From contig JBJOKS010000006.1 of the NCBI GenBank assembly GCA_046045965.1, positions 1 to 64,000 on the forward strand: DNA of 64,000 nt. The letters run 5' to 3'. Position 1 is the stretch's first letter; each line of letters begins with the position of its first letter. The position numbers and the translations under genes were made by a program. This document shows, in pieces, positions 21,653 to 60,716 of this stretch. The notes beneath the pieces are model-generated. The model did not search any database. It was not told the origin of the DNA and saw only the letters and a program-made list of their open reading frames with translations. This DNA comes from Cyanobacteriota bacterium. GTDB lineage: Bacteria > Cyanobacteriota > Cyanobacteriia > Cyanobacteriales > Nostocaceae.

Positions 21653-23236
21653 TTACTTTGTACTTAATAGGGATTGCCATGTAGCATAATTATCTTGCCA
21701 AATAGATTCTAACACGGTGTAAATGTCAGTAGCAACAGATTCATTTAAGGGAACAGATAACTGTATCCATATACAGCGGTCATCTCTGAGAACGTCCTGA
21801 CCTAAAAACCAAGGTAGCAACCGATTTAAGGTAACATCGTATTTATAACGATTTTGCATAAATTGAGATGAAGTCACAGTACCACCACCACGGGGATTGA
21901 TACAGGCTGTCAGATAAGCTTGTTTGGTGTCACTGTAAAGTGCATAGTAACCAACTCCTTTTAACTGTTTAATTTTGTTCTCGCTATCCTTAACTAAATC
22001 TTTAGCTATCTGGATTAAAAAGGGGTTTTGATCGCCTCTGGTATTAACTACATAACCCATCTGCACTGTTAGATTCTGTCCGTTTTTGAGATAGTTGTAA
22101 TCTTGTGCAAAGTCCACAATGATAGACTCATAAGTTATGAGCGGATTTTTATATGTTTGCCGACCCAGGGGCTTGAATTTAACTTGTTGCCAGTTATTGA
22201 CAGCGAGATGATCGGGAAAAATAGCAGTACCAATTGGTCGTTTGTTGGCGAATGAATAGATAGCAGTCAATATAATTCCTATCCAGGTTGCAGTAAGTAG
22301 AAAGCGCCTCTTTGGTTCTAATGTGACTGTTGTAGTAGGTTGAGGGGCTGCTGTCGGGGATAAAAATTCGACTGGCAATATCCAGTTACATAAGGCTGCA
22401 AAAGTAATAGTTGCGATCGCCATAAAAATAGTTCCCCCAGTATCTCCGTGCCAATAGTGAAACTGGTTGCGGTTGTTGACTATCACAGCTAATAAAGCGA
22501 CGCGAATACAGCCGACTAAAAATCCTGTAGCAAAGGCAGATAAAACTAATCCGCACCGCTGTTTCCAGGTCAGTGGAAAAACTACTACCATAATCAGCAT
22601 ACTCAACTGCATTAGCCACACAATCAAAACTCCGCCTGTGCAGAAATAGAGAACTTCTACTTGACCTGTAGGCAGTTTGACCAAATTCCCAAAGTGAGTA
22701 GCACCAAACCCTAAATAGTGGAGTAAAAAAGCAGATATTGTTGCAGTTACCTCATTAAAATGCAGCTGTGTAGTGAAAATTCCATTGATAAAGCTATAGG
22801 GAAAAATCATGAATAATAATAATAGGAATAAGCGCCAATAATGCCTTAATCCTGAAAAGCCAAAAGATAGTAATCCTAACCCAAAACCAGCGAGAACAGG
22901 ACCAAATCGAAATAGCATTAGGTCTAAATGCCAAAGATTTATAGGTCTAATTATGACTATAAATATCAAACATATTCCTAAAATACTAGAAAAAAAATTT
23001 GGACTATTTTCTGTCCTCTGGTTTTGCCAGAGTAAATATAAAATACCTCCCCAATATAGTGCATAAAATGCAATTTGTTCACCTTCTATTGGGTGATTTT
23101 TAATCATATCCAAATGCAAAATAGCCAAGGTGCTAAAAATCCCCAACAAATAAAATTGTTGAGTTGGCTGCCAGGAATTAAATCGGAGCAAAAAAGCTTT
23201 TTGGGCTTGCTTCAGTTTCTGATTACTGATTAACAT
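21653..23236 (-). CDS. crtA: Cyanoexosortase A (CrtA-like) fused to a C-terminal exosortase-associated (EpsI-like) domain
   Basis: Multi-TM N-terminal ~290 aa with putative Cys-Arg-His triad (VEVLYFCTG, CIRVALLA, FHYWHG); C-terminal soluble domain with YLTACINPRGGGTVT and DDRCIW; adjacent to HpsJ-like gene. Confidence 0.75.
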   Translation of the reverse strand: MLISNQKLKQAQKAFLLRFNSWQPTQQFYLLGIFSTLAILHLDMIKNHPIEGEQIAFYALYWGGILYLLWQNQRTENSPNFFSSILGICLIFIVIIRPINLWHLDLMLFRFGPVLAGFGLGLLSFGFSGLRHYWRLFLLLLFMIFPYSFINGIFTTQLHFNEVTATISAFLLHYLGFGATHFGNLVKLPTGQVEVLYFCTGGVLIVWLMQLSMLIMVVVFPLTWKQRCGLVLSAFATGFLVGCIRVALLAVIVNNRNQFHYWHGDTGGTIFMAIATITFAALCNWILPVEFLSPTAAPQPTTTVTLEPKRRFLLTATWIGIILTAIYSFANKRPIGTAIFPDHLAVNNWQQVKFKPLGRQTYKNPLITYESIIVDFAQDYNYLKNGQNLTVQMGYVVNTRGDQNPFLIQIAKDLVKDSENKIKQLKGVGYYALYSDTKQAYLTACINPRGGGTVTSSQFMQNRYKYDVTLNRLLPWFLGQDVLRDDRCIWIQLSVPLNESVATDIYTVLESIWQDNYATWQSLLSTK

Positions 23237-24845: not shown

Positions 24846-26927
24846 ATGGAAGAATATTTGCAGTATTTGTCAATACTTAAGCGGCGTTGGTTGCCCACTA
24901 CTATAGTTTTTTTAACTCTTTTGGCCTTGAGTATAGTTAAAACAGTCATAGAAACCCCCATTTATCAGGCAGGAGGCCAGTTGGTACTAAAAAAGAACTC
25001 TACCTCTTCCCTAACAGGAGTAGGCAGCCAACTAGGACAGTTAGAAAGTTCAGTCAGTGGTAGACCCTTGGGAACAGAGGTAGCTGTTTTACGTTCTCTG
25101 CCTTTAGCAGAAAAAACGATAAATACCCTTGGTTTCAATATCAATCCTCTAGTCTTTTTAAAAGACCTGCAAGTCAGAAACATTGAAAACACAGATATTT
25201 TAGAATTATATTATACAAGTCCAGATCCCAGAACAGCGGCTTCAGTTGTTAACACTTTGATGAAACTCTATATAGAGAATGATATAAATGCCAACCGCGC
25301 TCAAACCAGATCTGCTAGAGACTTTATTGCCCAACAGTTGCCGCTGAGAAAAGCCGCATTGCAAGCTGCTGAACGCAGATTACAATTGTTTAAACAGCAA
25401 AATAGAGTTTTAGACCTGAAAACAGAAGCTACGTCTAACCTAAGTATTATTACTACCTTGGATGGACAAGTAGCAGCAGCTAGATCCGATCTATCTGCCC
25501 AAACTGCCCGGATGCAATCAATCCAACAATTATTTGGTATAAGTTCCCAGGAGGCTGTACTGGCGGGTTTTGTGGGTGAATCTCCATCGACAACTTCGGT
25601 TCTTGTAAAGTTGCAAGATATCCAGCAAAGGATAGCTGTTACAGGTTTGCGTTTGACCGATACCCACCCGACGATGATTGACCTCAAACAAGAGGAGGTT
25701 ATCCTCAAAAAAGAACTCAAGAAACGGATAGAACAAAGCTTTATAGGTAAATCAGGACGTTTCAATGAGATCCAAGGGCCTGAAGAAATTGTACAACAAG
25801 GTGATTTACAACAAGGAATTTTGCAGCAATACGCTAATGCTGAAGCTGAACGACTTAGTTTGCAGGTAAGGCTGAAATCGTTGGCTCAAGTCATTGAATC
25901 TTACAGACAAAGGAGTAATAGCTTACCACAGCTAGAATTTCAACAACGTCAGTTGGAACGGGAAATAGCTGCAACTGAATCTAGTTACCAAAACCTTCTG
26001 GCTCGGTATCAAGAACTACAGGTAGCAGAAAACCTGCAAGTGAGCAATGCTAGGATTCTCACACCTGCCTTAATTCCAGGAGCGCCGATTAGAAGCCGTC
26101 AGTATATAAACTTACTACAAGGATTAATTGGTGGAATTGTTTTGGGGGTGGCCACTGCGCTTCTTTTAGAAAGATTGGACAATACTATCAAAACTCCACA
26201 ATCGGCCAAAGACTTATTGGGTTACACCTTATTGGGTTATATTCCTCCTTTTCCCAATGACAGTTTTACTCCAGAAGTTATTGTTAGAAATCAGCCTGAT
26301 TCACCAATTAGCGAAGCTTTTCGGATGCTGCAAACTAACCTGAGATTCTTCAACTCAGAACAATCCATTAAGGTGATTGTGGTAGCTAGTTCTGTACCAA
26401 AAGAAGGTAAATCAACAGTTGCGGCTAATTTATCCTTCTCTATATCTCAATTAGGACGCAATGTATTATTAGTAGATGCAGATTTGCGAAATCCCAGCCA
26501 ACATAAAATTTGGGAAATAGGCAATGAAGTAGGCTTGGGTAACATTCTCAAAAGTCAGGCAGATGTAGACCAGGCTTTGACTCAAATTACTCCTAACTTA
26601 GAAGTGATTACCGCTGGGGAATCAAACAATAACCCAGCTGCACTGCTCGATTCTAGTCAAATGGCTGTATTTGTTGCTCAGGTGGCACAAAGATATGATT
26701 TTGTCATCATAGATACTGCGCCGTTAACTTTGGCTGCTGATGCAACGATTTTGGGTAAATTGGTAAATGGAATTTTGTTTGTTGTTAAGCCAGGAGTAGT
26801 TACTTCTACTAGTATTTCTCTTTCTAAAGAAATGTTGGAGAAAGCTGATCAAAATGTTTTAGGTATGGTGATGAATGGCATCCATGTTAACCAACAATAT
26901 TATGCTTATGGAGAAAGTACGGTTTAG
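24846..26927 (+). CDS. wzc: Wzc/GumC polysaccharide co-polymerase and tyrosine autokinase
   Basis: Two TM segments flanking a coiled coil; SEAFRML, Walker A PKEGKS, LVDADLR, IIDTAP; C-terminal YYAY. Confidence 0.9.
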   Translation: MEEYLQYLSILKRRWLPTTIVFLTLLALSIVKTVIETPIYQAGGQLVLKKNSTSSLTGVGSQLGQLESSVSGRPLGTEVAVLRSLPLAEKTINTLGFNINPLVFLKDLQVRNIENTDILELYYTSPDPRTAASVVNTLMKLYIENDINANRAQTRSARDFIAQQLPLRKAALQAAERRLQLFKQQNRVLDLKTEATSNLSIITTLDGQVAAARSDLSAQTARMQSIQQLFGISSQEAVLAGFVGESPSTTSVLVKLQDIQQRIAVTGLRLTDTHPTMIDLKQEEVILKKELKKRIEQSFIGKSGRFNEIQGPEEIVQQGDLQQGILQQYANAEAERLSLQVRLKSLAQVIESYRQRSNSLPQLEFQQRQLEREIAATESSYQNLLARYQELQVAENLQVSNARILTPALIPGAPIRSRQYINLLQGLIGGIVLGVATALLLERLDNTIKTPQSAKDLLGYTLLGYIPPFPNDSFTPEVIVRNQPDSPISEAFRMLQTNLRFFNSEQSIKVIVVASSVPKEGKSTVAANLSFSISQLGRNVLLVDADLRNPSQHKIWEIGNEVGLGNILKSQADVDQALTQITPNLEVITAGESNNNPAALLDSSQMAVFVAQVAQRYDFVIIDTAPLTLAADATILGKLVNGILFVVKPGVVTSTSISLSKEMLEKADQNVLGMVMNGIHVNQQYYAYGESTV

Positions 26928-34035: not shown

Positions 34036-35071
34036 TCACGCAGAGACGCAGAGGAGCAGAGAAGAGAAAAAGAGTATGGTATAAAAATATATTAGTTATA
34101 TTTGTGAGATAAGATGTCAATTCCTGATTTTCAATCTATTATGCTTCCTTTGTTGCAATATGCAGGTGATGGTAAGGAGCATTCTTTAAGAGAAGCTATT
34201 ATATCTTTAGCTGATATTTTTAATTTAAGTGATGAGGAAAAAAAGGAATTATTACCCAGTGGACAGCAAGCTGTTTTTGATAATAGAGTAGGTTGGACTA
34301 GAACTCATTTGAAAAAAGCTGGTTTATTACAAGATCCAAAACGTGGTTTTTTTCAAATTACAGAACGAGGAAAGGAAGTATTAAGTCAAAATCCTGCGGA
34401 AATTAATCTCAAGTTTCTTAATCAATTTCCAGAGTTTATAGAATTTAAAACCAGTAAAAAAGATAATGATAAATCAGAATCAGAAATAATAGAAATATCT
34501 GAAACTACTCCGCAAGAATCTATAGAATTTGGTTATCAGAAAATTAGAAAAGAATTAGAGTTAGAAATATTGAACCGTGTTAAAAGCTGTTCACCTGATT
34601 TTTTTGAACGGTTGGTAGTCGATTTATTGGTAAAAATGGGTTACGGTGGTTCAAGACGTGATGCAGGGAGAGCGATTGGTAAAGGTGGAGATGGGGGAAT
34701 TGATGGGATAATTAAAGAAGATAAATTAGGTTTAGATATTGTTTATATTCAAGCAAAAAGATGGGATAACACGGTTGTGGGTAGACCGGAAATTCAAAAG
34801 TTTGTCGGTGCTTTACATGGACAAAGAGCGAGAAAAGGTGTTTTTATAACTACTTCTAAATTTTCCCAAGAAGCTAGAGAATATGTATCTATAATAGATA
34901 GTAAGATTGTTTTAATAGATGGACAAGAATTAGCGCAATTAATGATTGATAATCATGTGGGTGTATCAACTGTCTCTATTTACGAGATTAAAAAAATAGA
35001 TTCAGACTATTTTACAGATGAGTAATCAAAAACCTCAATCTTCCTCTCTGCGCCTCTGCGCCTCTGCGTGA
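34036..35071. mobile_element. mrr cassette bounded by 27-bp inverted repeats
   Basis: 34036-34062 TCACGCAGAGACGCAGAGGAGCAGAGA matches the reverse complement of 35045-35071 at 25/27. Confidence 0.5.
34114..35025 (+). CDS. mrr: Mrr type IV (modification-dependent) restriction endonuclease
   Basis: N-terminal MSIPDFQ...NRVGWTRTHLKKAGLL; catalytic domain DGGIDG...IQAKRW, GVFITTS, LIDG. Confidence 0.92.
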   Translation: MSIPDFQSIMLPLLQYAGDGKEHSLREAIISLADIFNLSDEEKKELLPSGQQAVFDNRVGWTRTHLKKAGLLQDPKRGFFQITERGKEVLSQNPAEINLKFLNQFPEFIEFKTSKKDNDKSESEIIEISETTPQESIEFGYQKIRKELELEILNRVKSCSPDFFERLVVDLLVKMGYGGSRRDAGRAIGKGGDGGIDGIIKEDKLGLDIVYIQAKRWDNTVVGRPEIQKFVGALHGQRARKGVFITTSKFSQEAREYVSIIDSKIVLIDGQELAQLMIDNHVGVSTVSIYEIKKIDSDYFTDE

Positions 35072-45499: not shown

Positions 45500-45832
45500 A
45501 TGTTGCCGCAACCAACTGATGATGGTGTTGTATTGGTGACAACTGCTACTGAGGAAGAAGCCAAAACAATTGCACAAGCTGTTGTGGAAGCTAAACTCGC
45601 AGCTGCCGTCAGTCTGTCACCGGTCTACTCTATTTACAGATGGCAGGGAGAAATTCACAACAAGCATGAATGGCAGTTGATGATGAAAACTAATTTGGCA
45701 TTATTCCCTACATTAGAAGCCAAAATTAGAGAAATTCATTCCTATCAACTGCCAGAAATTATCGCTTTACCTATTTTTAACGCTAGTCCTGCCTACCAAC
45801 AATGGATCAATGAGCAGGTACAAACAGAATAA
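45500..45832 (+). CDS. cutA: Divalent-cation tolerance protein CutA
   Basis: VLVTT...EEAKTIA, SIYRWQG, MKT, HSYQLPEII. Confidence 0.88.
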   Translation: MLPQPTDDGVVLVTTATEEEAKTIAQAVVEAKLAAAVSLSPVYSIYRWQGEIHNKHEWQLMMKTNLALFPTLEAKIREIHSYQLPEIIALPIFNASPAYQQWINEQVQTE

Positions 45833-46176
45833 ATACTTTCATGATTCTTCACTAAGTAAGACCATGTGCTTATTCTTACTGAATAATTGCTGTAAGGAAG
45901 TCAATTAACGTGATTTTTATATTTATTTACCTAACTTTTATATACAAACAGATACAATATTCCCAGTCTAAGTTTGATTTAACTAAATGTTAAGAATTGA
46001 TCACCTAAACCTTAATACACAGTAACAAAACGAAAATATACTATATATATAATATAAACTACATCAAATCTCTGGAACAATACAGGTGACAGGTGGCAGC
46101 TTTAAAACTAGAGTAAAACTTTTAAGAATGAATATCACTGATATTTATTTGTTATAGATAACAGGGAAATTAGTAA

Positions 46177-46794
46177 ATGCCTAGAAATTATAGTGTGAAA
46201 AGACTCGGTAATGGTTTAACCACTGGTACAACCACAACATCGGAGAAATTACTAGGTACTGTCAAATCATGGCAACAGCACTTAGTTGAATCCGTACCCT
46301 TTTTAATCGCTTGCGCTGTGTTTTTAAGCGTCATTAGTTTAAAAAGTCCTATTCTGCTTTTTTGTTTACTAATGGGCAGTTTAATTACAATAGTCTGCCA
46401 GCAAATTGGACAGCAGATAAATTTACCAAAAAAATGGCTAATAATATTACAAATATCGGCAGTATCCATCATTCTAAGTTTATTTTGGGTAGACTTTTTT
46501 GCTGCACCAGCATCTGCTCAATTTTTTGGTAAAGCTGAAAACTTCTTCAAAAATACATTGACACAAGGTACAGATAGCAGTAGTAATCCTCAAACAGCAG
46601 TCAGTTTAATATTCAACGTTTTACGAGCAATTTATTTACTTTATATTGCTGTTTCTCTAATTGGTGTCATTAATGCAGTTCGCAAAGATGAAGATTGGCA
46701 AAGTATTGCTAGAGTTCCGTTGATAGTAGTTGTTGCTGTTACTGTTGCGGATGTCCTCACAGGCTTTGTAATTGGTGATGGTGGCAGCAATTAA
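46177..46794 (+). CDS. T4SS first gene, VirB2/pilin-like membrane protein
   Basis: APASAQ processing-like site followed by two hydrophobic helices; position upstream of VirB3/VirB4-like genes. Confidence 0.5.
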   Translation: MPRNYSVKRLGNGLTTGTTTTSEKLLGTVKSWQQHLVESVPFLIACAVFLSVISLKSPILLFCLLMGSLITIVCQQIGQQINLPKKWLIILQISAVSIILSLFWVDFFAAPASAQFFGKAENFFKNTLTQGTDSSSNPQTAVSLIFNVLRAIYLLYIAVSLIGVINAVRKDEDWQSIARVPLIVVVAVTVADVLTGFVIGDGGSN

Positions 46795-46839
46795 TTTGTC
46801 TGTGTGATCAGATTCAGAAAAGTTTAAGTTCTAGTTTTT

Positions 46840-47217
46840 ATGTCTCAAGAACGTGATCAAGAATTTCGCCCAGTTAATCAAATATTAGGATCACAACCAT
46901 CATTAGGCCCTATTCCCGCTGATCAAATTCTACCCTGGTTGATTATTGTTCTAGTCTCATACTTTGTAATTAATGGAGTTTTTGGAGGACTATTTACAGA
47001 TGATTTTCAACGATGGTTGTGGACAGCATTAATGACAGGTTGGGGAATAGCAACTTGGTGGATTTTAAGTGGTGGTAGGAGTTGGCGATTTTTAAGTAAA
47101 TTTATTGGCGTTCCCACTTGGACAAGAGGTTTTGCTCGTTATCAAAGCTTGTTAGCAATTAACCATGAAGCAAAAAATCGGAAAACAAAACATCGGTATC
47201 GCAGGTCAAGAAAGTAG
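46840..47217 (+). CDS. T4SS VirB3-like small membrane protein
   Basis: 125 aa, two TM segments, overlaps virB4 start. Confidence 0.6.
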   Translation: MSQERDQEFRPVNQILGSQPSLGPIPADQILPWLIIVLVSYFVINGVFGGLFTDDFQRWLWTALMTGWGIATWWILSGGRSWRFLSKFIGVPTWTRGFARYQSLLAINHEAKNRKTKHRYRRSRK

Positions 47218-49912
47218 ATTAACACCATTTGAAGATGCTTTACATTTGGCGACAATGCTCCGTATTTCGCTAAATTCTAGAGATATTGGGGCTTATATTC
47301 TCAATAAAGAAAATCAAAAAGATAGGTTTTGCTTTGTCTTTGGGTTTGAATGTCGAGGCATTCATACCACTTTAAGGTCGGAACAAATAGAGACAATTTT
47401 TAATAATATTGAATCAGGTTTAAAAGATATTCCTGAAGGAGAAAAAATGACCTTGCATATAGGGTCATTTAGTTCAGATAAACAACGCCAAAAAGAATTA
47501 GGAGACTTAGTAAAGAAGACACCATCACGGGATATCAAATATTTATTGACGGCAGAAAGAGCGAGAATTCAAGAACTTACTAATTCTGGGATTCGCAAAC
47601 CGAAATTTCTGCGAATTTATGTGACTTATACGATAGAACCTAATGTAACACAAGCTAATGATTGGATTGAAAAATTTTTAGCCAAAACTGAAATTTGGTG
47701 GTTGAAATTTAAAGGAGAATTAGCAGAAGTTCAAAACCAGCGGATTGAAACTTTGATCATCAAAGCTTACCAAGAAGGTTTTTCTCGATGGGAACAATTG
47801 TTATCTAACAAAATGGGGTTAGATGTCAAACCTTTAAATGCTGATGAACTTTGGGAAGAAGCCTGGAGACGATTTAATGATACACCACCTATAGAAATTC
47901 CCCAATTACTTTATTTAGATGAAAATGGACTGCATGAACAAGTTAATTCAGAATTAGCTAGTAGCAAATTGTTGATAGAAAATGTCCACAGTACAACTTT
48001 GTTGATGGAATCTAGTGTACCCTGTGCGGATCGTCGTTGGGTGAATGTGAAAAATCGCTATATTGGAGCAATGACGTTTCTGGAAAAACCGGGAGGTTGG
48101 CCGAATAAATTTTCTCAGTTGCGTTATTTGTGGGATTTATTGGCTAGAGAAACGGTAGTAGATACAGAAATTTTTTGTCAGTTAACGGCTGCAAATCCCG
48201 CATTAGTAAAAACTACTTTACAACGAGTTTTAAAGCAGTCGAATATGACAGCAATGATGGCTCAAGAAAAAAGTAAAACTATTGATGTAAATGCTCAATT
48301 AAAGTTAAAGAAATCCGTAGCAGCACAAGAACAATTATATGAAGGTGCTGTTCCGATATATACGAGTGTAGTTATTTTTGTCCATCGTCCGACTATAGAA
48401 AAATTAGACGAAGCTACAAGATATATTGAAAACTGTTTTCAACGTCCTGCACAGGTAATTAGAGAAGTAGAATATGCCTGGAAAATTTGGTTACAATCTT
48501 TACCAATAGTTTGGGAAGGTTTGTTAGTTAAGCCATTTAACCGCAGACAATTATATTTAACCAGTGAAGTTCCGGGATTAATGCCTTTAATATTAACTAA
48601 AGCTGGAGATAAATATGGCTTTGAATTAATTGCTGAAGAAGGGGGAACACCAATACATTTAGATTTGTTTAATCAACATAAAAATTTAGCTTTGTTTGCG
48701 ACAACTCGTGCGGGTAAATCGGTTTTGGTGTCGGGAATTTTAACTCAAGCTTTAGCACATGGAATTCCTGTAATTGCGTTAGATTTTCCTAAACCTGATG
48801 GGACATCTACCTTTACTGACTATACAGAGTTTATGGAGGGAAATGGAGCGTATTTTGATATTTCCAAACAGTCAAATAATTTGTTTGAACAACCAGATTT
48901 GCGATCGCTCTCTCCAGAAGAACAACGCGATCGCCTTCTCGATTATACTGGATTCTTAGAATCAGCCTTAATGACAATGGTTTTAGGCTCATCCACTGAA
49001 AATCAACTCTTAACTCAAACCGTGCGTTCCTTACTCAATTTAGCCTTAACAGCGTTCTTTGCTGATGCCGGGATTAAGGAGCGATATAAACAAGCAATAG
49101 CTGACGGTTTTGGTAGTGCAGCTTGGCAAAAAACCCCTACTTTACAAGACTTTCTCTATTTTTGTTCTCCAGAACATCTGCAATTAGATTCTATTAGTGG
49201 CAGAGTCGATGATGCACTTAGTCAAATTCAATTGCGGTTACGTTTTTGGCTTTCTAGTCGTGTGGGAAAATCAATTTCTGCACCATCTAGCTTTCCTACA
49301 GATGCCCAACTTTTAGTTTTTGCACTGCGAAATTTATCAGATAATGAAGATGCAGCAGTTTTATCTTTAAGTGCTTATTCAGCCGCTTTGCGACGAGCAT
49401 TAAGCAGTCCAGCTTCGATATTTTTTATTGATGAAGCCCCAATTTTATTTGAATTTGATCAAATATCAGATTTAGTTGGCAGAATTTGTGCCAACGGTGC
49501 AAAAGCTGGAATCAGAGTTATTTTATCAGCACAAGATCCCGATACTATTGCTAAATCTAAAGCCTCATCAAAGATTTTACAAAACTTATCAACGAGATTA
49601 ATTGGTCGTATTCAGCCAGTAGCAGTAGATAGTTTTGTCAACATTTTAAAATACCCCCGTGATGTTATTTCTCGGAATGCGACAGAAAGCTTTTTTCCTC
49701 GGAAAGAAGGTATTTACAGTCAATGGTTGCTAGATGACAACGGCATTTATACATTCTGTCGTTATTATCCAGGTTATGAACAATTGGCTGCGGTTGCTAA
49801 CAACCCCAATGAACAAACTGCTCGTCAAGAAGCTATGTTACATTACAAGGATAAATATGAAGCAATTTCTGTATTTGCTCGGCAGTTAGTAGCTTCGCTG
49901 CGTGGTAGTTAA
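47165..49912 (+). CDS. virB4: VirB4-family T4SS ATPase (cyanobacterial MPF_C type)
   Basis: 915 aa; Walker A ATTRAGKS, PTLQDF, Walker B FFIDEAP, GAKAGIRVILSAQDP, ILQNL. Confidence 0.85.
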   Translation: MKQKIGKQNIGIAGQESRLTPFEDALHLATMLRISLNSRDIGAYILNKENQKDRFCFVFGFECRGIHTTLRSEQIETIFNNIESGLKDIPEGEKMTLHIGSFSSDKQRQKELGDLVKKTPSRDIKYLLTAERARIQELTNSGIRKPKFLRIYVTYTIEPNVTQANDWIEKFLAKTEIWWLKFKGELAEVQNQRIETLIIKAYQEGFSRWEQLLSNKMGLDVKPLNADELWEEAWRRFNDTPPIEIPQLLYLDENGLHEQVNSELASSKLLIENVHSTTLLMESSVPCADRRWVNVKNRYIGAMTFLEKPGGWPNKFSQLRYLWDLLARETVVDTEIFCQLTAANPALVKTTLQRVLKQSNMTAMMAQEKSKTIDVNAQLKLKKSVAAQEQLYEGAVPIYTSVVIFVHRPTIEKLDEATRYIENCFQRPAQVIREVEYAWKIWLQSLPIVWEGLLVKPFNRRQLYLTSEVPGLMPLILTKAGDKYGFELIAEEGGTPIHLDLFNQHKNLALFATTRAGKSVLVSGILTQALAHGIPVIALDFPKPDGTSTFTDYTEFMEGNGAYFDISKQSNNLFEQPDLRSLSPEEQRDRLLDYTGFLESALMTMVLGSSTENQLLTQTVRSLLNLALTAFFADAGIKERYKQAIADGFGSAAWQKTPTLQDFLYFCSPEHLQLDSISGRVDDALSQIQLRLRFWLSSRVGKSISAPSSFPTDAQLLVFALRNLSDNEDAAVLSLSAYSAALRRALSSPASIFFIDEAPILFEFDQISDLVGRICANGAKAGIRVILSAQDPDTIAKSKASSKILQNLSTRLIGRIQPVAVDSFVNILKYPRDVISRNATESFFPRKEGIYSQWLLDDNGIYTFCRYYPGYEQLAAVANNPNEQTARQEAMLHYKDKYEAISVFARQLVASLRGS

Positions 49913-49969
49913 TTAGGTGAGATGTCAAGATAAAAGAATGGTATAAATTCACATAGTAAAAGGGATTAT

Positions 49970-50821
<852 letters not shown>

Positions 50822-50871
50822 GTCTTACTACTGTAATTAATTGACTTTTATCAAAAACCTGTGAACCAAAA

Positions 50872-51921
50872 ATGCGACTTTATATTTTGCAAATTTTTCC
50901 AGAAATAGGTATCAATGAAACTCTGAATAGTGGTACAGAAACTGCCAGAAGTATGGCAGAAAGTTGGGATAATCAATGGTTAGATTTATTACAAAATAAC
51001 ACCAGCAATAATTTATATGGAGCGATCACAAATTTGGGTGTGTTTTTCGCTGTAGGAACTCTATTATTTTTTATGATGCAATGGTTGAAAGATGTTCTGT
51101 ACAGTGAATATTCCCGTCCTATATCGGGTTTGATTTGGCCTTTTATAGTAGTAGTTCTATTAAGTAATACGGGAAATGGTAGTATACTTTCTAGTTTGAC
51201 TTTGGGGGTAAGAAGTTTTATCAATACTGTCAATCAGCAAGTAGTGAATACAGCAGATGCTGATCAAACTTATCAACAAGCTTTAAATATGAGTTTAGCT
51301 GAAGAAGTTGCTGGTTCTTTAATTCGTCCTTGTCAGTCTTTAACAGGTGAACAACAAATCCAATGTTTTGCTAAAGCCAGTGATCAAATAGATGGACTAT
51401 GGCGAGAATATAGAAATTTATATGGTGATAAAGTTTGGATTCAAAGATTAGAAAATCAGGTAATTTCCCTAAAATTTGGCACATTGAATTTATCAGATAC
51501 TACTTTTAATTCCTTGTTGGGGAATACGGCACAGACTAGCATCAAAAACTTTTTAATTTCCTTGCAATATGCTTTTCAAAATTTGCTAGAAGCTACTATG
51601 TTACTGATAGCAGCTTTGGGTCCGATAGCTGTGGGTGCGTCTTTGTTACCTGTGGCTGGAAAGCCGATTTTTGCATGGATAACGGGGTTTCTAGCGGCGG
51701 GAATTGCCAAGATATCATTTAATATCATTGCTGCTGTCACCTCTGCTGTAGTGATTAATGGACCGGCGGAAAATCCTAATGCGAATCCTGATTTAATGTG
51801 GTTCATTATTTTTCTGGGAATTTTAGCACCTGTTTTATCCTTAGTTGTGGCTGGTGCGGGAGGATTTGCGGTTTTTAGTGCTATTAATAATACCGATGGT
51901 TTGGTAAAAGGTAGGATATAA
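50872..51921 (+). CDS. T4SS VirB6-like polytopic membrane protein
   Basis: Two N-terminal TM segments, periplasmic loop with Cys pair, C-terminal TM cluster with LLIAALGPIAVGASLLP. Confidence 0.7.
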   Translation: MRLYILQIFPEIGINETLNSGTETARSMAESWDNQWLDLLQNNTSNNLYGAITNLGVFFAVGTLLFFMMQWLKDVLYSEYSRPISGLIWPFIVVVLLSNTGNGSILSSLTLGVRSFINTVNQQVVNTADADQTYQQALNMSLAEEVAGSLIRPCQSLTGEQQIQCFAKASDQIDGLWREYRNLYGDKVWIQRLENQVISLKFGTLNLSDTTFNSLLGNTAQTSIKNFLISLQYAFQNLLEATMLLIAALGPIAVGASLLPVAGKPIFAWITGFLAAGIAKISFNIIAAVTSAVVINGPAENPNANPDLMWFIIFLGILAPVLSLVVAGAGGFAVFSAINNTDGLVKGRI

Positions 51922-52068
51922 ATCAAGACATTTAAGTTAATAATTTTCCCTTCTCTTTTCTCTGTGTTCTCTGCGTCCTCTGCGGTTAGTTTCCCAAAAA
52001 AATTAGGCTTAACTGAACCGTATTGGCATATAAATCTGAATAATATTCAATAGGATGAATATACAAAA

Positions 52069-52893
52069 ATGACAAATTTACTTAACAAGAAAAAACCCAA
52101 AGGGAATATTTTAAATACTTTTGCGATCGCTACTTTCAGTCTGCATTTATTAGTATTATTTTTATTCATTTTGCAAGGTTTAAACATTCGCCAACTCAGT
52201 TTGCGAAAACCGCCTAATTTTGTGCAAATGATTGATGGTCAAACTCCATCTGCTACTGATGACTTAGCCAGAGATCCCGAAGCAATACGCCAATTTATCA
52301 GTAAAACCATGACATCCATGTTTAATTGGTCGGGAACTTTACCAATAAACAATGTTGAAGCATCGACAAAACCACAACCAGATCCAGGAATTACAGTGAG
52401 AACATCACAGGGTGGAAATCAAAAAGTGACTACGAGTAGTTGGGTTGCTAGTTTTGCCATATCAGAAGATTTTCGTAAAGGTTTTTTAAGTGCGATCGCT
52501 CAAATGACTCCACCAGAAGTTTTCTCTAGCAACCTCAGTCAAGGAATGTCCGCAGAATTAGTCATTAAGCGAATTTATCCCCCAGAACAAATAGAAGCTG
52601 GTAAATGGAGAGTGGGAATGGTAGCAGATTTAATTCAAAAAAAACGCGCAAATGATATCAGAACAATAACCCCCTTTAATAAAGATTTATTAGTTCGTGC
52701 AGTAGATTATTATCCCTATCCCCTACCTAATATTAGCACCGATATTCAAAAAGCAATTTATAGCAATCGCGCTCAGAAATTAGAAATTTATGAAATTCGG
52801 AGTTTATGCTTAATAGATAACTATAGTAACCTGAGTGATGATAAATCAAATCCTTGCGGAAATAGCAGAACTTCTGATAGTTTTATCAGATAA
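52069..52893 (+). CDS. T4SS bitopic protein, VirB8-like (paralog 1)
   Basis: Single N-terminal TM; VQMIDG, RDPEAIRQFI, PFNKDLLVRAVD. Confidence 0.6.
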   Translation: MTNLLNKKKPKGNILNTFAIATFSLHLLVLFLFILQGLNIRQLSLRKPPNFVQMIDGQTPSATDDLARDPEAIRQFISKTMTSMFNWSGTLPINNVEASTKPQPDPGITVRTSQGGNQKVTTSSWVASFAISEDFRKGFLSAIAQMTPPEVFSSNLSQGMSAELVIKRIYPPEQIEAGKWRVGMVADLIQKKRANDIRTITPFNKDLLVRAVDYYPYPLPNISTDIQKAIYSNRAQKLEIYEIRSLCLIDNYSNLSDDKSNPCGNSRTSDSFIR

Positions 52894-52935
52894 ATAAATT
52901 TTAATTACCAATAACCAATCACCAATGACTTAATT

Positions 52936-53628
52936 ATGCAATTAGTAAAATCAGAAACTAAAAAAAGTAGCATCTTACCACTATTAGCTGTAGGAACATT
53001 TGGCTTACATCTCTTTACCCTGCTATTACTTGTATTCCACGGTTCTATGTTACAGGATTTAAAGCGACAATTAACACCCCAAAGTTTAGTACAACTTATT
53101 GATGGTCGTGCTATTAGTGTAGACCCCAAAGCAAATTATGAGCGACATCCAGAGACAATTCGCCGCTTTGTCGGTGAAACCATGACTCTCATGCTTACCT
53201 GGTCAAGACAACAGCCACCACTTACAGTATGGGACATTAGTTCACAACTCTTAGCCTCTGATTTGAAACCAAAATTTCAGTCAGAAATTACTAATTTAAA
53301 TTCTAATAATCAATTTGCCAATATTAATCAAGGAACTGAATATGTATTAGTAATAGAAAAGATTTCTCAACCTACACAGACAGCCAATGGTAAATGGGAA
53401 ATAGAGATGCTTGCCAATCAATTGACTTTTAGCGGTTATAATAATTTGGGAACATCAATTCCGTTTAATAAAAAAATCTTAATCAGAGCCATTGATCAAC
53501 CAAAAACTTCACTACCAACCAAACCACTACCGTGGCATTTAGCAGCTTACCGTCTTGGGGAAGCTAGGCTAGAAATTTACGATATATGTGACATCAAAGA
53601 TAACAAATGTTCTGTAAAATCTAACTAA
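52936..53628 (+). CDS. T4SS bitopic protein, VirB8-like (paralog 2)
   Basis: Single N-terminal TM; VQLIDG, RHPETIRRFV, PFNKKILIRAID. Confidence 0.6.
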   Translation: MQLVKSETKKSSILPLLAVGTFGLHLFTLLLLVFHGSMLQDLKRQLTPQSLVQLIDGRAISVDPKANYERHPETIRRFVGETMTLMLTWSRQQPPLTVWDISSQLLASDLKPKFQSEITNLNSNNQFANINQGTEYVLVIEKISQPTQTANGKWEIEMLANQLTFSGYNNLGTSIPFNKKILIRAIDQPKTSLPTKPLPWHLAAYRLGEARLEIYDICDIKDNKCSVKSN

Positions 53629-53696
53629 GCAATAAACTCTAAGATTCCTATCTGAGTTTGAACAGATTACTTACACATTTACACATCTATTCTCTT

Positions 53697-53728
53697 CCCT
53701 CCTGCCTTCTGCCTCCTGCCTCCTGCCT
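53697..53728. repeat. STRR (CTCCTGC)n upstream of virB10-like gene
   Basis: Read directly; explains the spurious LPSCLLPPASCL extension of the long ORF. Confidence 0.8.
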
Positions 53729-53762
53729 TGCCATAACGACAATTTTTAACGCCTACCTACTT

Positions 53763-55349
53763 ATGACTTCCTATTCACTTGAACCACAATTTTCTACACA
53801 ACCTCTCATCGAACCCAATGCTAATAAATATCAATTGGAAGTAGATACTAGAGATTGGGAATCTCAAATGGCCAGATTGGTTGGTTTTGAAGAAGAATCC
53901 CCCCAAGTCAACATTGACGCACCAGAAGCAGAAATAGACATCTTACAACCGTCCCCATCTCAGCCGCAAGAAGTTCCAACAGAACAACATCTTTCAGCTA
54001 ATCCCTTTGCTAAGTTAACCTTAGTAGGTAGTGCTACCTTGACCGTAGTGCTATTAGCTGGTGGTTTTCTATCGCAGATTATGAGTACCAGCAATCAAAA
54101 GCCCAAAAATAATCCTGTTTCTTCAACAGCAGCATTAGCACCAAAAATTGAACCCAGCCAGCAAAATTTAGCGCAGGAAATAGAGACTTTAAAAACAAAA
54201 TTGGCGCTTGCTGAACAAGCACAGGCTGTAACAGCAGCACAACAAAATTTGAGAAATAGAGCAACTTCACCGGTGGAAACTCCACGGCTAAACAACAGAA
54301 CACCAATACCTGTGCAAACTGCTTCTGCACCCCGCGTAGTCACAGTTGAGCGCATCATTGAAAAACCCTATTCTCCATTACCATCTGTCCCACCAGTTGC
54401 TGTTGTCCCGACCGTTGCACCATCAAACGACCCTCCAGAGGCCAACCCAGACACCCAACCATCTCCACCAGCTCCACCTGACCCCCTCGAAGAATGGACA
54501 AAATTAGCCAAGTTAGGTAGCTACGGTCAGGTTTACACTACTGGTCAATCTGGTGTGAATATCGCTCAAGTAGCTCCTCTTAATAATACTAATGTCAGCA
54601 AACAGCCAACCAACTTCAACCCGGAACCACCACCATCAGAGCCAGAAATTCTAGTCAGTCAAGCACAACAGCAAAACTCGAAATCAGTCAAAGTAGGAAC
54701 TAGTGCCAAAGCTGTATTGCTAACAGCTATATTTGGGGAAACGACAAAAGGAAGGAATAATGATCGGAATAATCAAAAAGATGAAAATACTGATGTATTT
54801 GTAGTGCAGTTGAAAGAACCACTAAAATCTCTGGATGGTGCGATCGCTTTACCTGCTAAGACTGAATTATTAACTCAAATTCGTTCTATTTCCGAACGAG
54901 GACTATTGCAGTTGGATGTAGTCAAAGTGATATCACAAGACAACGGCCAGCTTCAAGAAAAAAGCTTACCCAACAATGCAATTACTATTCGCGCTTCCCA
55001 AGGTAGACCGCTAGTAGCAAACAAATTTCCTAATAATGGCTCATCCATAGCCGGAATGGATGCCGGACTATTTGTTTTAGGAGGTGTCAGTAGAGCCGCA
55101 GAGTTATTAAATCGTATTGACACCCAAGTTACAACCAATTCTGGCAGCACTGTTGTTACCAACTCTAACGGCCAACGTAATCTAGCAGCGGGAATTGTGG
55201 AAGGTGGTTTAAAATCTATAGTTCCGCAAATTACCCAACGTAATCAACAAGCAATTTCTCAACTTATCCAACAAAGTAATACTAATGTTTGGTTGCTACC
55301 CGCTGGTCAAGAAGTGGAAATATATATTAATCGCACCATGCAATTTTAG
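53763..55349 (+). CDS. TrbI/VirB10-like T4SS core protein
   Basis: TM anchor, coiled coil, long Pro-rich linker, C-terminal beta domain (VKVGTSAKAVL...LPAGQEVEIYIN); ATG 53763 preferred over TTG 53658. Confidence 0.75.
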   Translation: MTSYSLEPQFSTQPLIEPNANKYQLEVDTRDWESQMARLVGFEEESPQVNIDAPEAEIDILQPSPSQPQEVPTEQHLSANPFAKLTLVGSATLTVVLLAGGFLSQIMSTSNQKPKNNPVSSTAALAPKIEPSQQNLAQEIETLKTKLALAEQAQAVTAAQQNLRNRATSPVETPRLNNRTPIPVQTASAPRVVTVERIIEKPYSPLPSVPPVAVVPTVAPSNDPPEANPDTQPSPPAPPDPLEEWTKLAKLGSYGQVYTTGQSGVNIAQVAPLNNTNVSKQPTNFNPEPPPSEPEILVSQAQQQNSKSVKVGTSAKAVLLTAIFGETTKGRNNDRNNQKDENTDVFVVQLKEPLKSLDGAIALPAKTELLTQIRSISERGLLQLDVVKVISQDNGQLQEKSLPNNAITIRASQGRPLVANKFPNNGSSIAGMDAGLFVLGGVSRAAELLNRIDTQVTTNSGSTVVTNSNGQRNLAAGIVEGGLKSIVPQITQRNQQAISQLIQQSNTNVWLLPAGQEVEIYINRTMQF

Positions 55350-55361
55350 CTGTAAACAACT

Positions 55362-56033
55362 ATGAAACATCTTCATTTGACAACAAAAACTTCAAATAAG
55401 ACCAATTTGAAAAATGATAGCGGCAAATGGATTTATAGACTCTATCTGCATAATTTTCTTCCCCATCGAGAATCTAAAATCCAAAATCCAAAATCGTATT
55501 ATCCTCATTTATTACCTCTGGCTTCCCTGGTGTTCTCAGTGGCCATGTTATTGTTGGCGGGTCGTGCTGTAGCTAATAATGCTGTTCTCCGTTCCCTGTT
55601 TTCCTGTCAAGCGCAGGGTTTATCAGGAATTGTACCAACTATTGAGGTTTCCTATCAACAAGGTACAAATTTAAGCTTTCTTCCTGCTGGTGAAACCATT
55701 AGAAAAGTTTGGTTAAATGACCCGTCACAGGTGACAATGGATTTTGATGGACCGATGTGTACGCAGTTCGGAGAAGAACCCAAACTGAGTGCAGGGGACT
55801 GTAAAAACTCAGCAGCAAATGTCATTCAACTGCGACGAATTGAAAGGCTAAAAATTCCGGGATTACCCAAAATGGACAACACACTTTTAACAGTAATTAC
55901 CGAAAGGCAAGGAAAAAACAAGCTCTATACTTTTAGAATACTATATAAAGATGTTGCGCCTGGGTATCACACGTTAGCTATTTATCAAGATTCATCTTCT
56001 AATGGGGCAAATTGTGCCAGAAGTGCATATTAA
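55362..56033 (+). CDS. T4SS VirB9-like exported protein (start uncertain)
   Basis: Signal-like segment ending GRAVA; GTNLSF..GETIRKVWLNDPS and TLLTVIT...LYTF resemble TrbG/VirB9 folds; AAAATCC repeats in the 5' part. Confidence 0.55.
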   Translation: MKHLHLTTKTSNKTNLKNDSGKWIYRLYLHNFLPHRESKIQNPKSYYPHLLPLASLVFSVAMLLLAGRAVANNAVLRSLFSCQAQGLSGIVPTIEVSYQQGTNLSFLPAGETIRKVWLNDPSQVTMDFDGPMCTQFGEEPKLSAGDCKNSAANVIQLRRIERLKIPGLPKMDNTLLTVITERQGKNKLYTFRILYKDVAPGYHTLAIYQDSSSNGANCARSAY

Positions 56034-56178
56034 TTCATATTACCTGAATCACAGAAAACTCAGTAGATGGCATCAATAGCAACCTGGACTTGAGCAGATG
56101 TTAAAATCATCTGGAACATTTCTACCCGCTATTCGACTTACAATTTAACAGTAGAACTTCTAATATGTGGTGAGAATT

Positions 56179-56715
56179 ATGAAACGCTTTCTTAAGTCTT
56201 TGGTAACAATTTCTGCTTTATCTTCCTTGGTAATTGCTCCCGCATTTCTGTCAGTTGGTAAAGCTGCTGCCGAAACCCAAAAAGGCACAGATGCCAGTTA
56301 TATTGGTGTTGGTGTAGCTGCTGGTGTTACTAATGGTGGACAAAACAACGATGCTGCTACCTTTGGTGGCAATGTCACAGGTCGTTTAAAATTGGGAAAT
56401 ACACCTTTTTCTGCACGGGGTAATGTCCTCTGGAGCGATGAAACCTCTGCTATCATTCCTGAACTTTCTGTAGATGTACCTATTGCTAATAAAACCAATG
56501 TCTTTGTTACTGGTGGCTATTCTTTTGTAGAGTCAGATGGTAGACCAACACCTTTGGGTAACAGAGATTCCGTAGTTGTAGGTGCTGGGGTAGAATCTGA
56601 AGTGACTAAAAACTTCCTCGTCTACACTAACGCTAAACTTGGACTGGGTGCATACCAAAATAGTGATGCTTCTGCTGTTAGCATCAATGGTGGTATCGGC
56701 TATCGCTTTAAGTAA
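56179..56715 (+). CDS. Small outer-membrane beta-barrel protein
   Basis: Signal peptide (KAAAE), alternating beta strands, C-terminal GGIGYRF(K). Confidence 0.75.
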   Translation: MKRFLKSLVTISALSSLVIAPAFLSVGKAAAETQKGTDASYIGVGVAAGVTNGGQNNDAATFGGNVTGRLKLGNTPFSARGNVLWSDETSAIIPELSVDVPIANKTNVFVTGGYSFVESDGRPTPLGNRDSVVVGAGVESEVTKNFLVYTNAKLGLGAYQNSDASAVSINGGIGYRFK

Positions 56716-56718
56716 GTA

Positions 56719-56780
56719 GGTGATTGGTGATTGGTGATTGGTGACTGGGTAAAAATGACTAATAACTAATGACCAATGAC
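56719..56780. repeat. STRR cluster (GGTGATT)n / (TAATGAC)n
   Basis: Read directly; the arms are partly complementary. Confidence 0.75.
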
Positions 56781-59865: not shown

Positions 59866-60657
59866 TTATTGTCCATGAAATTTAATCATTCTACTGTTTA
59901 CAGGTTGCACTGGACGAGCATTTACTTGATATAAACTTTGGAAAGCTGCAATTTGTTTTTCTGAAACTTGAATCGGTTCAATTAACAAATTCCATTTTAC
60001 ATTTTCACTGCATGGTGGTGTAGTTAGTGAACCACTATAACTGAAAAAAGCTTTATTTTTAGGCAATAAATTAGCAGCATTAATGGTAGAATTTTGAACT
60101 TCATTGTTTTTTTCCACTGTGGAAATATGCTGCCATATTTGAGCAATAAAGGGATTATTTGTACCTTTATTTATCATCACTCCCACAACTGCTAGTTGAT
60201 TTTTAGCATTGCGGTGAACCAAGTGCATTTCTAGAGCAGAGGCTTTATTATTAATAGTATGTTCGCTAGGTGTGTGAAAATGAAATTGGATAAGTTCATA
60301 TTCATCATCGTTAAGTTTCATGGTGCTACCTGGTTGATAATTTACTTGCACAGTATGACCATTATTCACAACTAATAAAGGTGTTGGTTGATAGTTAAAC
60401 TGTATTTTAATGGGAGTTCCTTCTACTGCATTATTGATATTAATAGGAGATTGATTTTTCCCCAGTTCACAAAGAGCAAAGTTAGGACTGATTTCTCCCC
60501 ATTGAGTAGGATTATTTGCACCTCCATAACTCCAATTTGGCTTATTTTCTTCAGCTATAACTTGTGTAGAAAACACAACCATCAAGCCTATTAAAAATGT
60601 TAAAATTATGAACAGATTGCTAGATAAAATATTTTTTACTTTCCCGCTTAATTTCAT
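59866..60657 (-). CDS. Alpha-class carbonic anhydrase, exported (EcaA-like)
   Basis: Signal peptide; WSYGG, QSPINI, QFHFHTPSEH, LEMHLVH, YSGSLTTPPCSE, NARPVQ. Confidence 0.92.
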   Translation of the reverse strand: MKLSGKVKNILSSNLFIILTFLIGLMVVFSTQVIAEENKPNWSYGGANNPTQWGEISPNFALCELGKNQSPININNAVEGTPIKIQFNYQPTPLLVVNNGHTVQVNYQPGSTMKLNDDEYELIQFHFHTPSEHTINNKASALEMHLVHRNAKNQLAVVGVMINKGTNNPFIAQIWQHISTVEKNNEVQNSTINAANLLPKNKAFFSYSGSLTTPPCSENVKWNLLIEPIQVSEKQIAAFQSLYQVNARPVQPVNSRMIKFHGQ

Positions 60658-60716
60658 AATGCTATATCTATACTTGAAAAACACTATAATCTCTCAACGG
60701 AAACAATACAAGTAAA

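Follow-up and report, generated by a model that had tools for sequence, protein, structure and literature searches.

The 64,000-nucleotide window analysed here (positions 1 to 64,000 of contig JBJOKS010000006.1, assembly GCA_046045965.1, from a member of the Nostocaceae) carries, between positions 46177 and 56033, an operon whose products resemble the parts of a type IV secretion system (T4SS). Nine open reading frames (ORFs) fill this interval in one orientation (+) and without interruption, with intergenic gaps of -53 to 147 nt, just as an earlier note made from the sequence alone had described. The ORFs, numbered T1 to T9, and the edges of the segment that contains them are listed below with their orthologues in Nostoc PCC 7120 (aa, amino acids).

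45832..46176, + strand: upstream non-coding region and left edge of the inserted segment; homology to the operon-less genome G018 ends at 45831 (cutA stop)
46177..46794, + strand: T1, pilin-like membrane protein, 205 aa; all0471 orthologue by position
46840..47217, + strand: T2, VirB3-like small membrane protein, 125 aa; one hydrophobic segment
47165..49912, + strand: T3, VirB4 ATPase, 915 aa; all0469 orthologue
49970..50821, + strand: T4, exported coiled-coil-rich protein, 283 aa; N-terminal signal-like hydrophobic segment, residues 4-22
50872..51921, + strand: T5, VirB6-like polytopic membrane protein, 349 aa; five hydrophobic segments
52069..52893, + strand: T6, VirB8-like paralogue a, 274 aa; all0466 orthologue by position; N-terminal transmembrane segment
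52936..53628, + strand: T7, VirB8-like paralogue b, 230 aa; clade-specific extra copy
53658..55349, + strand: T8, VirB10/TrbI-like protein; all0464 orthologue; transmembrane segment at residues 117-135
55362..56033, + strand: T9, VirB9-like protein, 223-aa ORF; all0463 orthologue by position
56034..56063, no strand: right edge of the inserted segment; homology to operon-less G018 restarts at 56064

Judged from sequence comparison, the nine genes are a reduced T4SS of mating-pair formation class C (MPF_C), with VirB4 as its sole ATPase, and belong to an old and separate cyanobacterial sub-lineage. By the same comparison, this sub-lineage has gained a second VirB8 and has lost the type IV coupling protein (T4CP), two more genes located downstream of VirB9, and both the AAA ATPase and the MobV relaxase that lie upstream in the conjugative forms.

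Membership in MPF_C is indicated by eight collinear homologues and by a VirB4 tree in which the operon joins T4CP-bearing cyanobacterial loci. The module of pCC7120alpha (a plasmid of Nostoc sp. PCC 7120), the MPF_C model in the available part of PMC4027160, has the same order of pilin-like, VirB3-like, VirB4, exported protein, VirB6-like, VirB8, VirB10 and VirB9 genes. All eight of its proteins are homologous to those of the window at 24-53% identity (VirB4, 53%), so that the resemblance in gene order noted earlier proves to be a direct match. The two differ in that the plasmid module has one VirB8 and the window operon two; the plasmid module continues with a gene of ~400 aa and a T4CP, whereas the window operon has neither; and the plasmid module is preceded upstream by AAA ATPase, MobV relaxase and integrase genes that have no counterpart at the window operon. 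In contrast to the plasmid module, the window operon belongs to a separate VirB4 clade found on chromosome-sized replicons. Loci of relatives with 52-63% VirB4 identity share the conjugative layout of pCC7120alpha. Among them, loci of the integrative and conjugative element (ICE) type (L053-L055, 59-63% VirB4 identity) are chromosomal and agree with the window operon in the identity and order of the first eight genes, but carry one VirB8; behind their VirB9 stand genes of ~611 aa and ~185 aa and then a T4CP of 604-630 aa. These ICE-like loci lie inside multi-megabase contigs (G075:C1, G165:C1 and G050:C1); the T4CP of L053 is in pieces, and G075 has three ICE-like MPF_C copies on one 6.8-Mb contig and G165 two.

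The earlier note had seen neither relaxase, VirD4, transposase nor att repeats near the operon, and no such gene was found in the 64-kb window. Pfam searches of 57 window ORFs (16 + 41) returned no integrase, transposase, relaxase or T4CP family, and no direct repeats were found that pair the two operon borders. The genome itself (G000) holds one VirB4 and gave no match to the T4CP families PF02534, PF12696 and PF10412, models that recognise MPF_C coupling proteins at 1e-21 to 1e-31 as a positive control; tblastn with MPF_C T4CP was also negative. The relaxase families PF01076, PF03432, PF08751 and PF07514 were likewise unmatched in this genome, in a search run without a cyanobacterial relaxase as positive control. 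The absence of T4CP, relaxase and integrase from an MPF_C-like T4SS, as first proposed, is thus borne out by both the window and the genome searches. Across the wider clade, a T4CP or the adjoining gene of 400-611 aa was present at 0/22 loci; tblastn found both in 4/4 control loci. No T4CP match was found anywhere in 10 of 21 operon-bearing genomes, including assemblies of 1, 2, 4 and 8 contigs, which argues against mobilisation in trans as the routine role that the earlier note had offered as an option. None of the nine operon genes is VirB11-like, and no competence or DNA-binding gene is linked to the operon in 22 loci.

We then asked how the operon relates to its homologues. VirB4 identity is at least 75% among 22 sampled loci (the window, L013-L028, L048-L050, L052 and L123) and at most 63% to all T4CP-bearing MPF_C loci. 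In a VirB4 tree, obtained by a quick LG+G4 search and built without the other seven MPF classes, the 22 members form one clade with a Shimodaira-Hasegawa-like approximate likelihood ratio (SH-aLRT) support of 100; its stem measures 0.42, and the T4CP-bearing clades are its sister group. The tree proposed earlier as a check therefore places the window VirB4 in a clade of its own and not nested among plasmid or ICE copies. Two VirB8 genes are present in 22/22 complete clade loci. In the VirB8 tree, T6 and T7 define sister clades of 21 rows each, supported at 100 SH-aLRT each and joined at 94 (L123 left out), and this arrangement points to a single VirB8 duplication at the base of the clade. Operon and species distances are correlated (Mantel r 0.57; 1/5000 permutations as high), and descent has therefore been mostly vertical with some transfers.

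Among 41 relatives, 20 of 24 family genomes carry one VirB4 at 77-96% identity, compared with 0/16 from the order's other families. When the family was sampled evenly, ~107 of 151 genomes had a VirB4 at 75% or more (a hand count among the matches listed), the next class starting at 63%, and 21 genomes have their match at a point more than 1 Mb inside the contig. Outside the family, 1/219 genomes from other families of the phylum (G354) has an 80% VirB4 copy, which is basal in the VirB4 tree and nested in the VirB8 trees, and a single plasmid record of the 133 that match attains 75%, namely Cy782201, an 880-kb linear replicon of Gloeothece verrucosa PCC 7822. These results show that the lineage is monophyletic and widespread in heterocyst-forming cyanobacteria, on chromosome-sized replicons. 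In G354 and Gloeothece alike the operon is rearranged, with a break that falls between VirB4 and the fourth gene. The Gloeothece locus (L123; Cy782201, 138980-161721) is a circularly permuted clade member, with genes 4-8 followed by genes 1-3, and has both VirB8 genes and no VirB9; its host is a unicellular nitrogen fixer. A "heterocyst-only" reading of the clade is ruled out by this rearranged member and by the split copy in G354, from another family. A third MPF_C-like class, in which a VirB3-VirB4 fusion of 1076 aa is ~35% identical to the window VirB4, was found at L032 6611-9841 (G001:C2) and at L033 (G018:C2); a T4CP match occurs far off on the same contigs.

Sequence libraries barely recognise the operon proteins, and the only two of them with matches in Pfam and NCBIfam are VirB4 and the VirB10-like protein. 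VirB4 (T3) matches NCBIfam TraC-F at 2.6e-15 and VirB4_CagE at 6e-12, both far under the curated cut-offs. Its Walker A (ATTRAGKS) and Walker B (IFFIDEA) motifs, described earlier as intact, are both present and are invariant in 22/22 clade members. T8 matches Pfam TrbI over residues 344-563 (E 1.4e-6, under cut-off); its true start is probably the ATG at 53763, because nucleotide homology to relatives begins at 53758-53763.

Given these weak matches, T9 and T7 were folded on alignments of relatives. The AlphaFold2 model of T9 has a predicted local distance difference test score (pLDDT) of 76.6, and a Foldseek search gave 8 matches at E<=1e-3, all of them VirB9-family proteins (DotH, TrwF, Xanthomonas VirB9 and CagX). 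The N-terminal ~33 residues of the T9 ORF fall below pLDDT 50 in this model and are doubtful. The T7 model (pLDDT 82.6) gave 28 Foldseek matches at E<=1e-3, of which those listed are VirB8-family proteins (TrwG, TraM, CagV, DotI and TraE). Profile searches of PDB sequences with the VirB9 and VirB8 alignments gave no match. T6 is a paralogue of T7 at ~30% identity and is nearer than T7 to the single VirB8 of T4CP-type loci. A modelled T6-T7 complex reaches an ipSAE of 0.80 against 0.07 for the best control, with runs sharing at least 66% of contacts and a partner pLDDT of at least 79; of solved complexes, 116 of 157 attained the ipSAE mark, and of mismatched pairs 2 of 215. The model thus favours a contact of the two VirB8 proteins through their periplasmic domains.

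The remaining proteins are named from other kinds of evidence. Fusion of VirB3 to VirB4 is a known arrangement, and a T2 homologue is fused to the VirB4 N-terminus in the 35%-identity class (1076 aa). Atlas look-alikes of T5 carry PF07863 CtnDOT_TraJ (score 0.88, 190 shared features), which we take as a lead only. T1 has four hydrophobic segments, and its tentative pilin label is taken from hydropathy; it is kept in all clade loci and is 35.6% identical to the first gene of the pCC7120alpha module. T4 is kept at the same position in all MPF_C classes, with 23-27% identity to T4CP types. In a Pfam search of 72 homologues, T4 had no family match, and the pilin-like, VirB3-like, coiled-coil and VirB6-like proteins were negative or gave noise. 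Hydropathy of the operon proteins fits the expected topologies. Of the names first given to the components, VirB4, VirB10, VirB9 and the two VirB8 are confirmed, and the pilin is without family support. The VirB3-like label is supported by the VirB4 fusion and the VirB6-like label by five hydrophobic segments and the Atlas lead, neither of them with a Pfam match.

All nine genes are under purifying selection, including since the transfer described below, as judged from codon substitution. The ratio of nonsynonymous to synonymous divergence (dN/dS) between window genes and those of 16 genomes, calculated by the Nei-Gojobori method, was lowest for VirB4 (T3, 0.05-0.12), followed by VirB6-like T5 (0.07-0.19), VirB3-like T2 (0.09-0.18), pilin-like T1 (0.10-0.26), VirB8a (T6, 0.12-0.26), VirB8b (T7, 0.16-0.35), VirB9-like T9 (0.15-0.36), the coiled-coil protein T4 (0.19-0.44) and VirB10-like T8 (0.20-0.36). 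Reference values were 0.02-0.04 for rpoB and 0.05-0.10 for sir. Against the congener G001 alone the operon values are 0.05-0.27. The dN/dS check suggested earlier therefore finds constraint on every gene (0.05-0.44).

In Nostoc PCC 7120 the VirB4 orthologue is all0469, and the window genes map in order onto all0471 down to all0463, a mapping with which the gene lengths agree (Flaherty et al. 2011 supplement, PMC3141674). The available part of the R-DeeP supplement (PMC11797042) gives mass-spectrometry gradient profiles for All0469, All0464 and All0466 from filaments 26 h after step-down; All0469 and All0464 are profiled in 3 of the 4 rows listed and All0466 in 1 of 4. Expression data, which the earlier note had called for, thus indicate that the orthologues are expressed as RNA and protein in this strain under diazotrophic conditions. 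Of two further sources, in their accessible portions, one predicts a FurC box upstream of all0465 (PMC10406281, Table 1) and the other lists all0463 among genes confined to heterocyst formers (Simm et al. 2015). Two metatranscriptome runs contain 0.79 (X1) and 0.27 (X2) of the sampled words and carry no weight as evidence here.

To place the operon at its site, we compared gene order with three related genomes.

G018 (sister genus, no operon): helix-turn-helix (HTH), cutA, ADP-ribosylglycohydrolase (minus strand), omp, sir
G002 (same genus, 99% complete, no operon): HTH, ADP-ribosylglycohydrolase, TnpB-like gene, omp
G001 (same genus): cutA, operon, ADP-ribosylglycohydrolase, omp
G000 (window): cutA, operon, omp; ADP-ribosylglycohydrolase lost

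From this gene order the operon is a 10.2-kb insertion (45832-56063) in an intergenic gap of ~80 bp. At the left border homology to G001 restarts at 45976 and homology to G014 at 46113. Neither the window nor any other part of the G000 assembly contains the ADP-ribosylglycohydrolase gene. At the G002 site (L047 3369-4493, G002:C8) there is a 374-aa TnpB-like ORF, named by reading its translation, and cutA is gone. The operon's flanks differ between genera and no flanking gene is common to more than two loci, so that conserved neighbours offered no clue to a cargo. The synteny of cutA, T4SS and sir, proposed for comparison across the order, is common to only one congener, and the sister genus has the same site without the operon.

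Phylogeny argues that the operon arrived by transfer. In a species tree of rpoB and Sir, G000, G001, G002 and G018 stand beside G006, G007 and G021 (99). A tree of seven operon proteins follows the species tree elsewhere, but G000 and G001 fall inside the G014/G022/G019 group (100). Approximately unbiased (AU) tests reject the swapped placements: the operon data give p 4e-37, the species data p 0.023 and 0.0019. Synonymous divergence (dS) between G000 and G014 is 1.55 for rpoB and 1.48 for sir, compared with 0.44-0.91 for operon genes, whereas between G000 and G001 it is alike for operon and reference genes (0.32-0.56). The closest named proteins outside the genus, at 92% identity, are from Nodularia. 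Because of the operon tree position, the AU tests and the low operon dS, we conclude that the ancestor of G000 and G001 acquired the operon from a Nostocaceae lineage near G014/G022, before the two split. In another family genome, G005 (93% complete, 6% contamination), both the rpoB and the sir matches on G005:C6 and G005:C4 are split or contain in-frame stops, which may reflect assembly quality or interrupted genes.

The earlier note had called the system a candidate for domestication. The parts of that reading which stand are that the operon is T4CP-less, selected, and expressed in PCC 7120. Vertical fixation at a single site between cutA and sir was too strong a claim in view of the patchy presence, the varying flanks and the transfer into this genome. 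Patchy presence at varying loci, which the note had set against domestication, is indeed the pattern observed; we read it as that of a dispensable, transferable and selected module, not of a fixed domesticated organelle.

Taken with the missing T4CP, these results lead us to regard a T4CP-independent function of the operon for its host as moderately probable, and our best guess at that function is a T4CP-independent pilus or channel. VirB4 alone would power assembly of an envelope-spanning VirB6/8/8'/10(/9) channel, like TraC in F-type systems; the channel would probably carry a surface filament of the T1 protein, and the two VirB8 would probably form a hetero-oligomeric periplasmic ring. Such a machine would work without a cytoplasmic substrate receptor. 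It might act as a filament for contact or adhesion, take up DNA through a channel like that of ComB, or export periplasmic cargo in the manner of Ptl. Within a host function, a surface filament or contact is the form we would tentatively place first, while DNA uptake and export of periplasmic cargo both seem unlikely. The Bordetella Ptl toxin exporter works without a coupling protein, takes a periplasmic cargo and keeps a VirB11-type ATPase. It resembles the window operon in lacking a coupling protein and differs in its VirB11-type gene, of which the operon has none; the operon also has no linked cargo gene. A bolder possibility, to which we give little weight, is that a conjugation machine lost its DNA-transfer parts, received a second VirB8 and became an organelle of development or of the cell surface in nitrogen-fixing cyanobacteria, one that is T4CP-free, is turned on following nitrogen step-down and is of enough value to be reacquired by gene transfer once lost. 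Such an organelle might place or export envelope or surface material of differentiating filaments, or move macromolecules between cells.

Several observations weigh against a conserved host machine of this kind. The ortholog class was not found in ~44 of 151 (~29%) family genomes, from which it follows that the operon is dispensable, and two of three congeners, including the 99% complete G002, are without it. A second operon-class copy at 75-77% occurs in six family genomes; together with the transferred copy here, this means that the module still moves by some route. A VirB9-like gene was not found in 9 of 22 clade loci, and a genome-wide search in five genomes with VirB9-less loci returned only VirB9 copies from paralogue loci; either VirB9 is not needed or the VirB9-less copies work differently. 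RNA of the PCC 7120 orthologues is very low (RPKM, reads per kilobase per million, <5), all0463 having 1 to 11 reads (PMC3141674 supplement). Some of the nine transcripts vary by a factor of about two at most. In the available part of the R-DeeP data (PMC11797042) the ctrl2 row contains nothing but zeros, and the rows listed do not include All0465, All0467 or All0468. Beyond two table rows, we found no literature that names all0461-all0472 in the main text. The score of the T6-T7 model may owe something to likeness with solved VirB8 oligomers. Support from Atlas for a pilin family of T1 was sought and rejected (best score 0.76, mixed families). All trees were quick searches, and the groups used in the AU tests were named after the trees had been seen. 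Finally, G000 is a draft (92.2% complete, 107 contigs) from which plasmids may be missing, and a T4CP is present elsewhere in 11 of 21 operon-bearing genomes, where use in trans is possible.

This last point bears on the view that the operon is still a conjugation channel, a chromosomal mating-pair apparatus used in trans by the T4CP and relaxase of plasmids or ICEs. Besides those 11 genomes, it is favoured by the one to five further MPF_C loci present in many family genomes, and by the movement of the operon itself between lineages and its second copy in 6 genomes. However, 10 of the 21 genomes with the operon gave no T4CP match, and four of these ten are near-complete assemblies; the genome studied here has neither a T4CP nor a relaxase match. 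Every T4CP-bearing locus examined has its own full MPF set, and the operon VirB4 is at most 63% identical to those sets; according to the available text of PMC3548315, T4CPs tend to co-evolve with their MPF. On balance, we rate conjugation in trans as improbable.

Helicobacter pylori ComB is a VirB4-only competence T4SS, built of VirB2/3/6/8/9/10-type parts without VirD4 or VirB11, that takes up DNA. By analogy, the window operon could be a machine in which a VirB2/3/4/6/8/9/10 set lacking VirD4 and VirB11 pulls DNA over the outer membrane. The part list fits this minimal set in that VirB4 is the one ATPase and both a T4CP and a VirB11-like gene are missing, and the operon entered this genome without any mobility gene. 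Against it, the likeness is one of part list: ComB is an unrelated lineage of another MPF class, in which we claim no membership for the operon, and no sequence relation is known beyond T4SS folds. No DNA-binding or competence gene is linked to the operon in 22 loci, and VirB9 is missing from 9 of them. A ComB-like machine strikes us as a rather poor prospect. A decaying ICE remnant that by chance is still intact would account for the lack of T4CP, relaxase and integrase, for the patchiness within the genus, for the four stop codons in the G067 VirB4 and for the loss of VirB9 from 9/22 loci, but we consider it very improbable in the face of dN/dS values of 0.05-0.44 on all nine genes, a clade present in ~107 sampled genomes with nearly all VirB4 frames intact at 915 aa (among the matches listed), invariant Walker motifs, a VirB8 duplication kept in 22/22 loci and proteins detected in PCC 7120.

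The 2013 and 2014 papers of Guglielmini et al. define MPF_C on the plasmid module, and in their available parts nothing is known of it experimentally (PMC3548315, PMC4027160); it is the one T4SS class without an experimental system in the sections seen of PMC3548315 and PMC5587801. The accessible text of Cury et al. 2017 (PMC5587801) holds no MPF_C data, and a 2021 survey, in the part available, covers plasmids only. The window operon falls in the category of "MOBless T4SS" of Guglielmini et al. 2011 (PMC3158045), where, in the available text, one sentence mentions relaxase-less T4SS in cyanobacteria and suggests protein secretion; that text has no description of the clade, its VirB8 duplication, spread, selection or expression. 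We found no earlier description of the T4CP-less, VirB8-duplicated clade in the literature, subscription journals not being covered. In the sampled genomes, the most widespread MPF_C member class is this T4CP-less, VirB8-duplicated operon and not the conjugative form. It is present in most heterocyst formers, including the genetic model Nostoc PCC 7120 (all0463-all0471), and so offers a testable case of what a VirB4-only T4SS does, a candidate envelope machine for cyanobacterial multicellularity, diazotrophy and surface biology, and an instance of loss and regain between lineages by a secretion operon that carries no mobility gene itself.

The operon's neighbours are ordinary chromosomal genes, in agreement with the first description of its flanks (cutA on the left, the OMP_b-brl gene and sir on the right). 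The upstream side has a DUF7469 gene, two genes that fit no clear family, an HTH gene and then cutA (PF03091, E 2e-34); downstream, the OMP_b-brl gene is followed by sir. GC content of the operon is not distinct from its surroundings. A promoter and terminator scan returned 24 promoter-like sites compared with 37.3 in shuffles and was uninformative at the borders; the upstream region has one weak promoter-like match at 46086-46114. Heptamer runs (GGTGATT and its complement) are present at 52903-52936, between the VirB8 genes, and at 56713-56748, past the omp gene, and this short repeat matches dozens of places in each of three congeneric genomes. Elsewhere in the window, positions 1-29300 are occupied by a polysaccharide-synthesis cluster with more than 10 glycosyltransferases, FkbM and other methyltransferases and hexapeptide transferases, which also encodes, at 21653-23236 on the minus strand, an exosortase EpsH-type protein and, at 24846-26927, a chain-length regulator of GNVR/ParA type. 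At 34114-35025 lies a gene for an Mrr-type restriction endonuclease, and at 59866-60684, on the minus strand, one for a eukaryotic-type (alpha) carbonic anhydrase.

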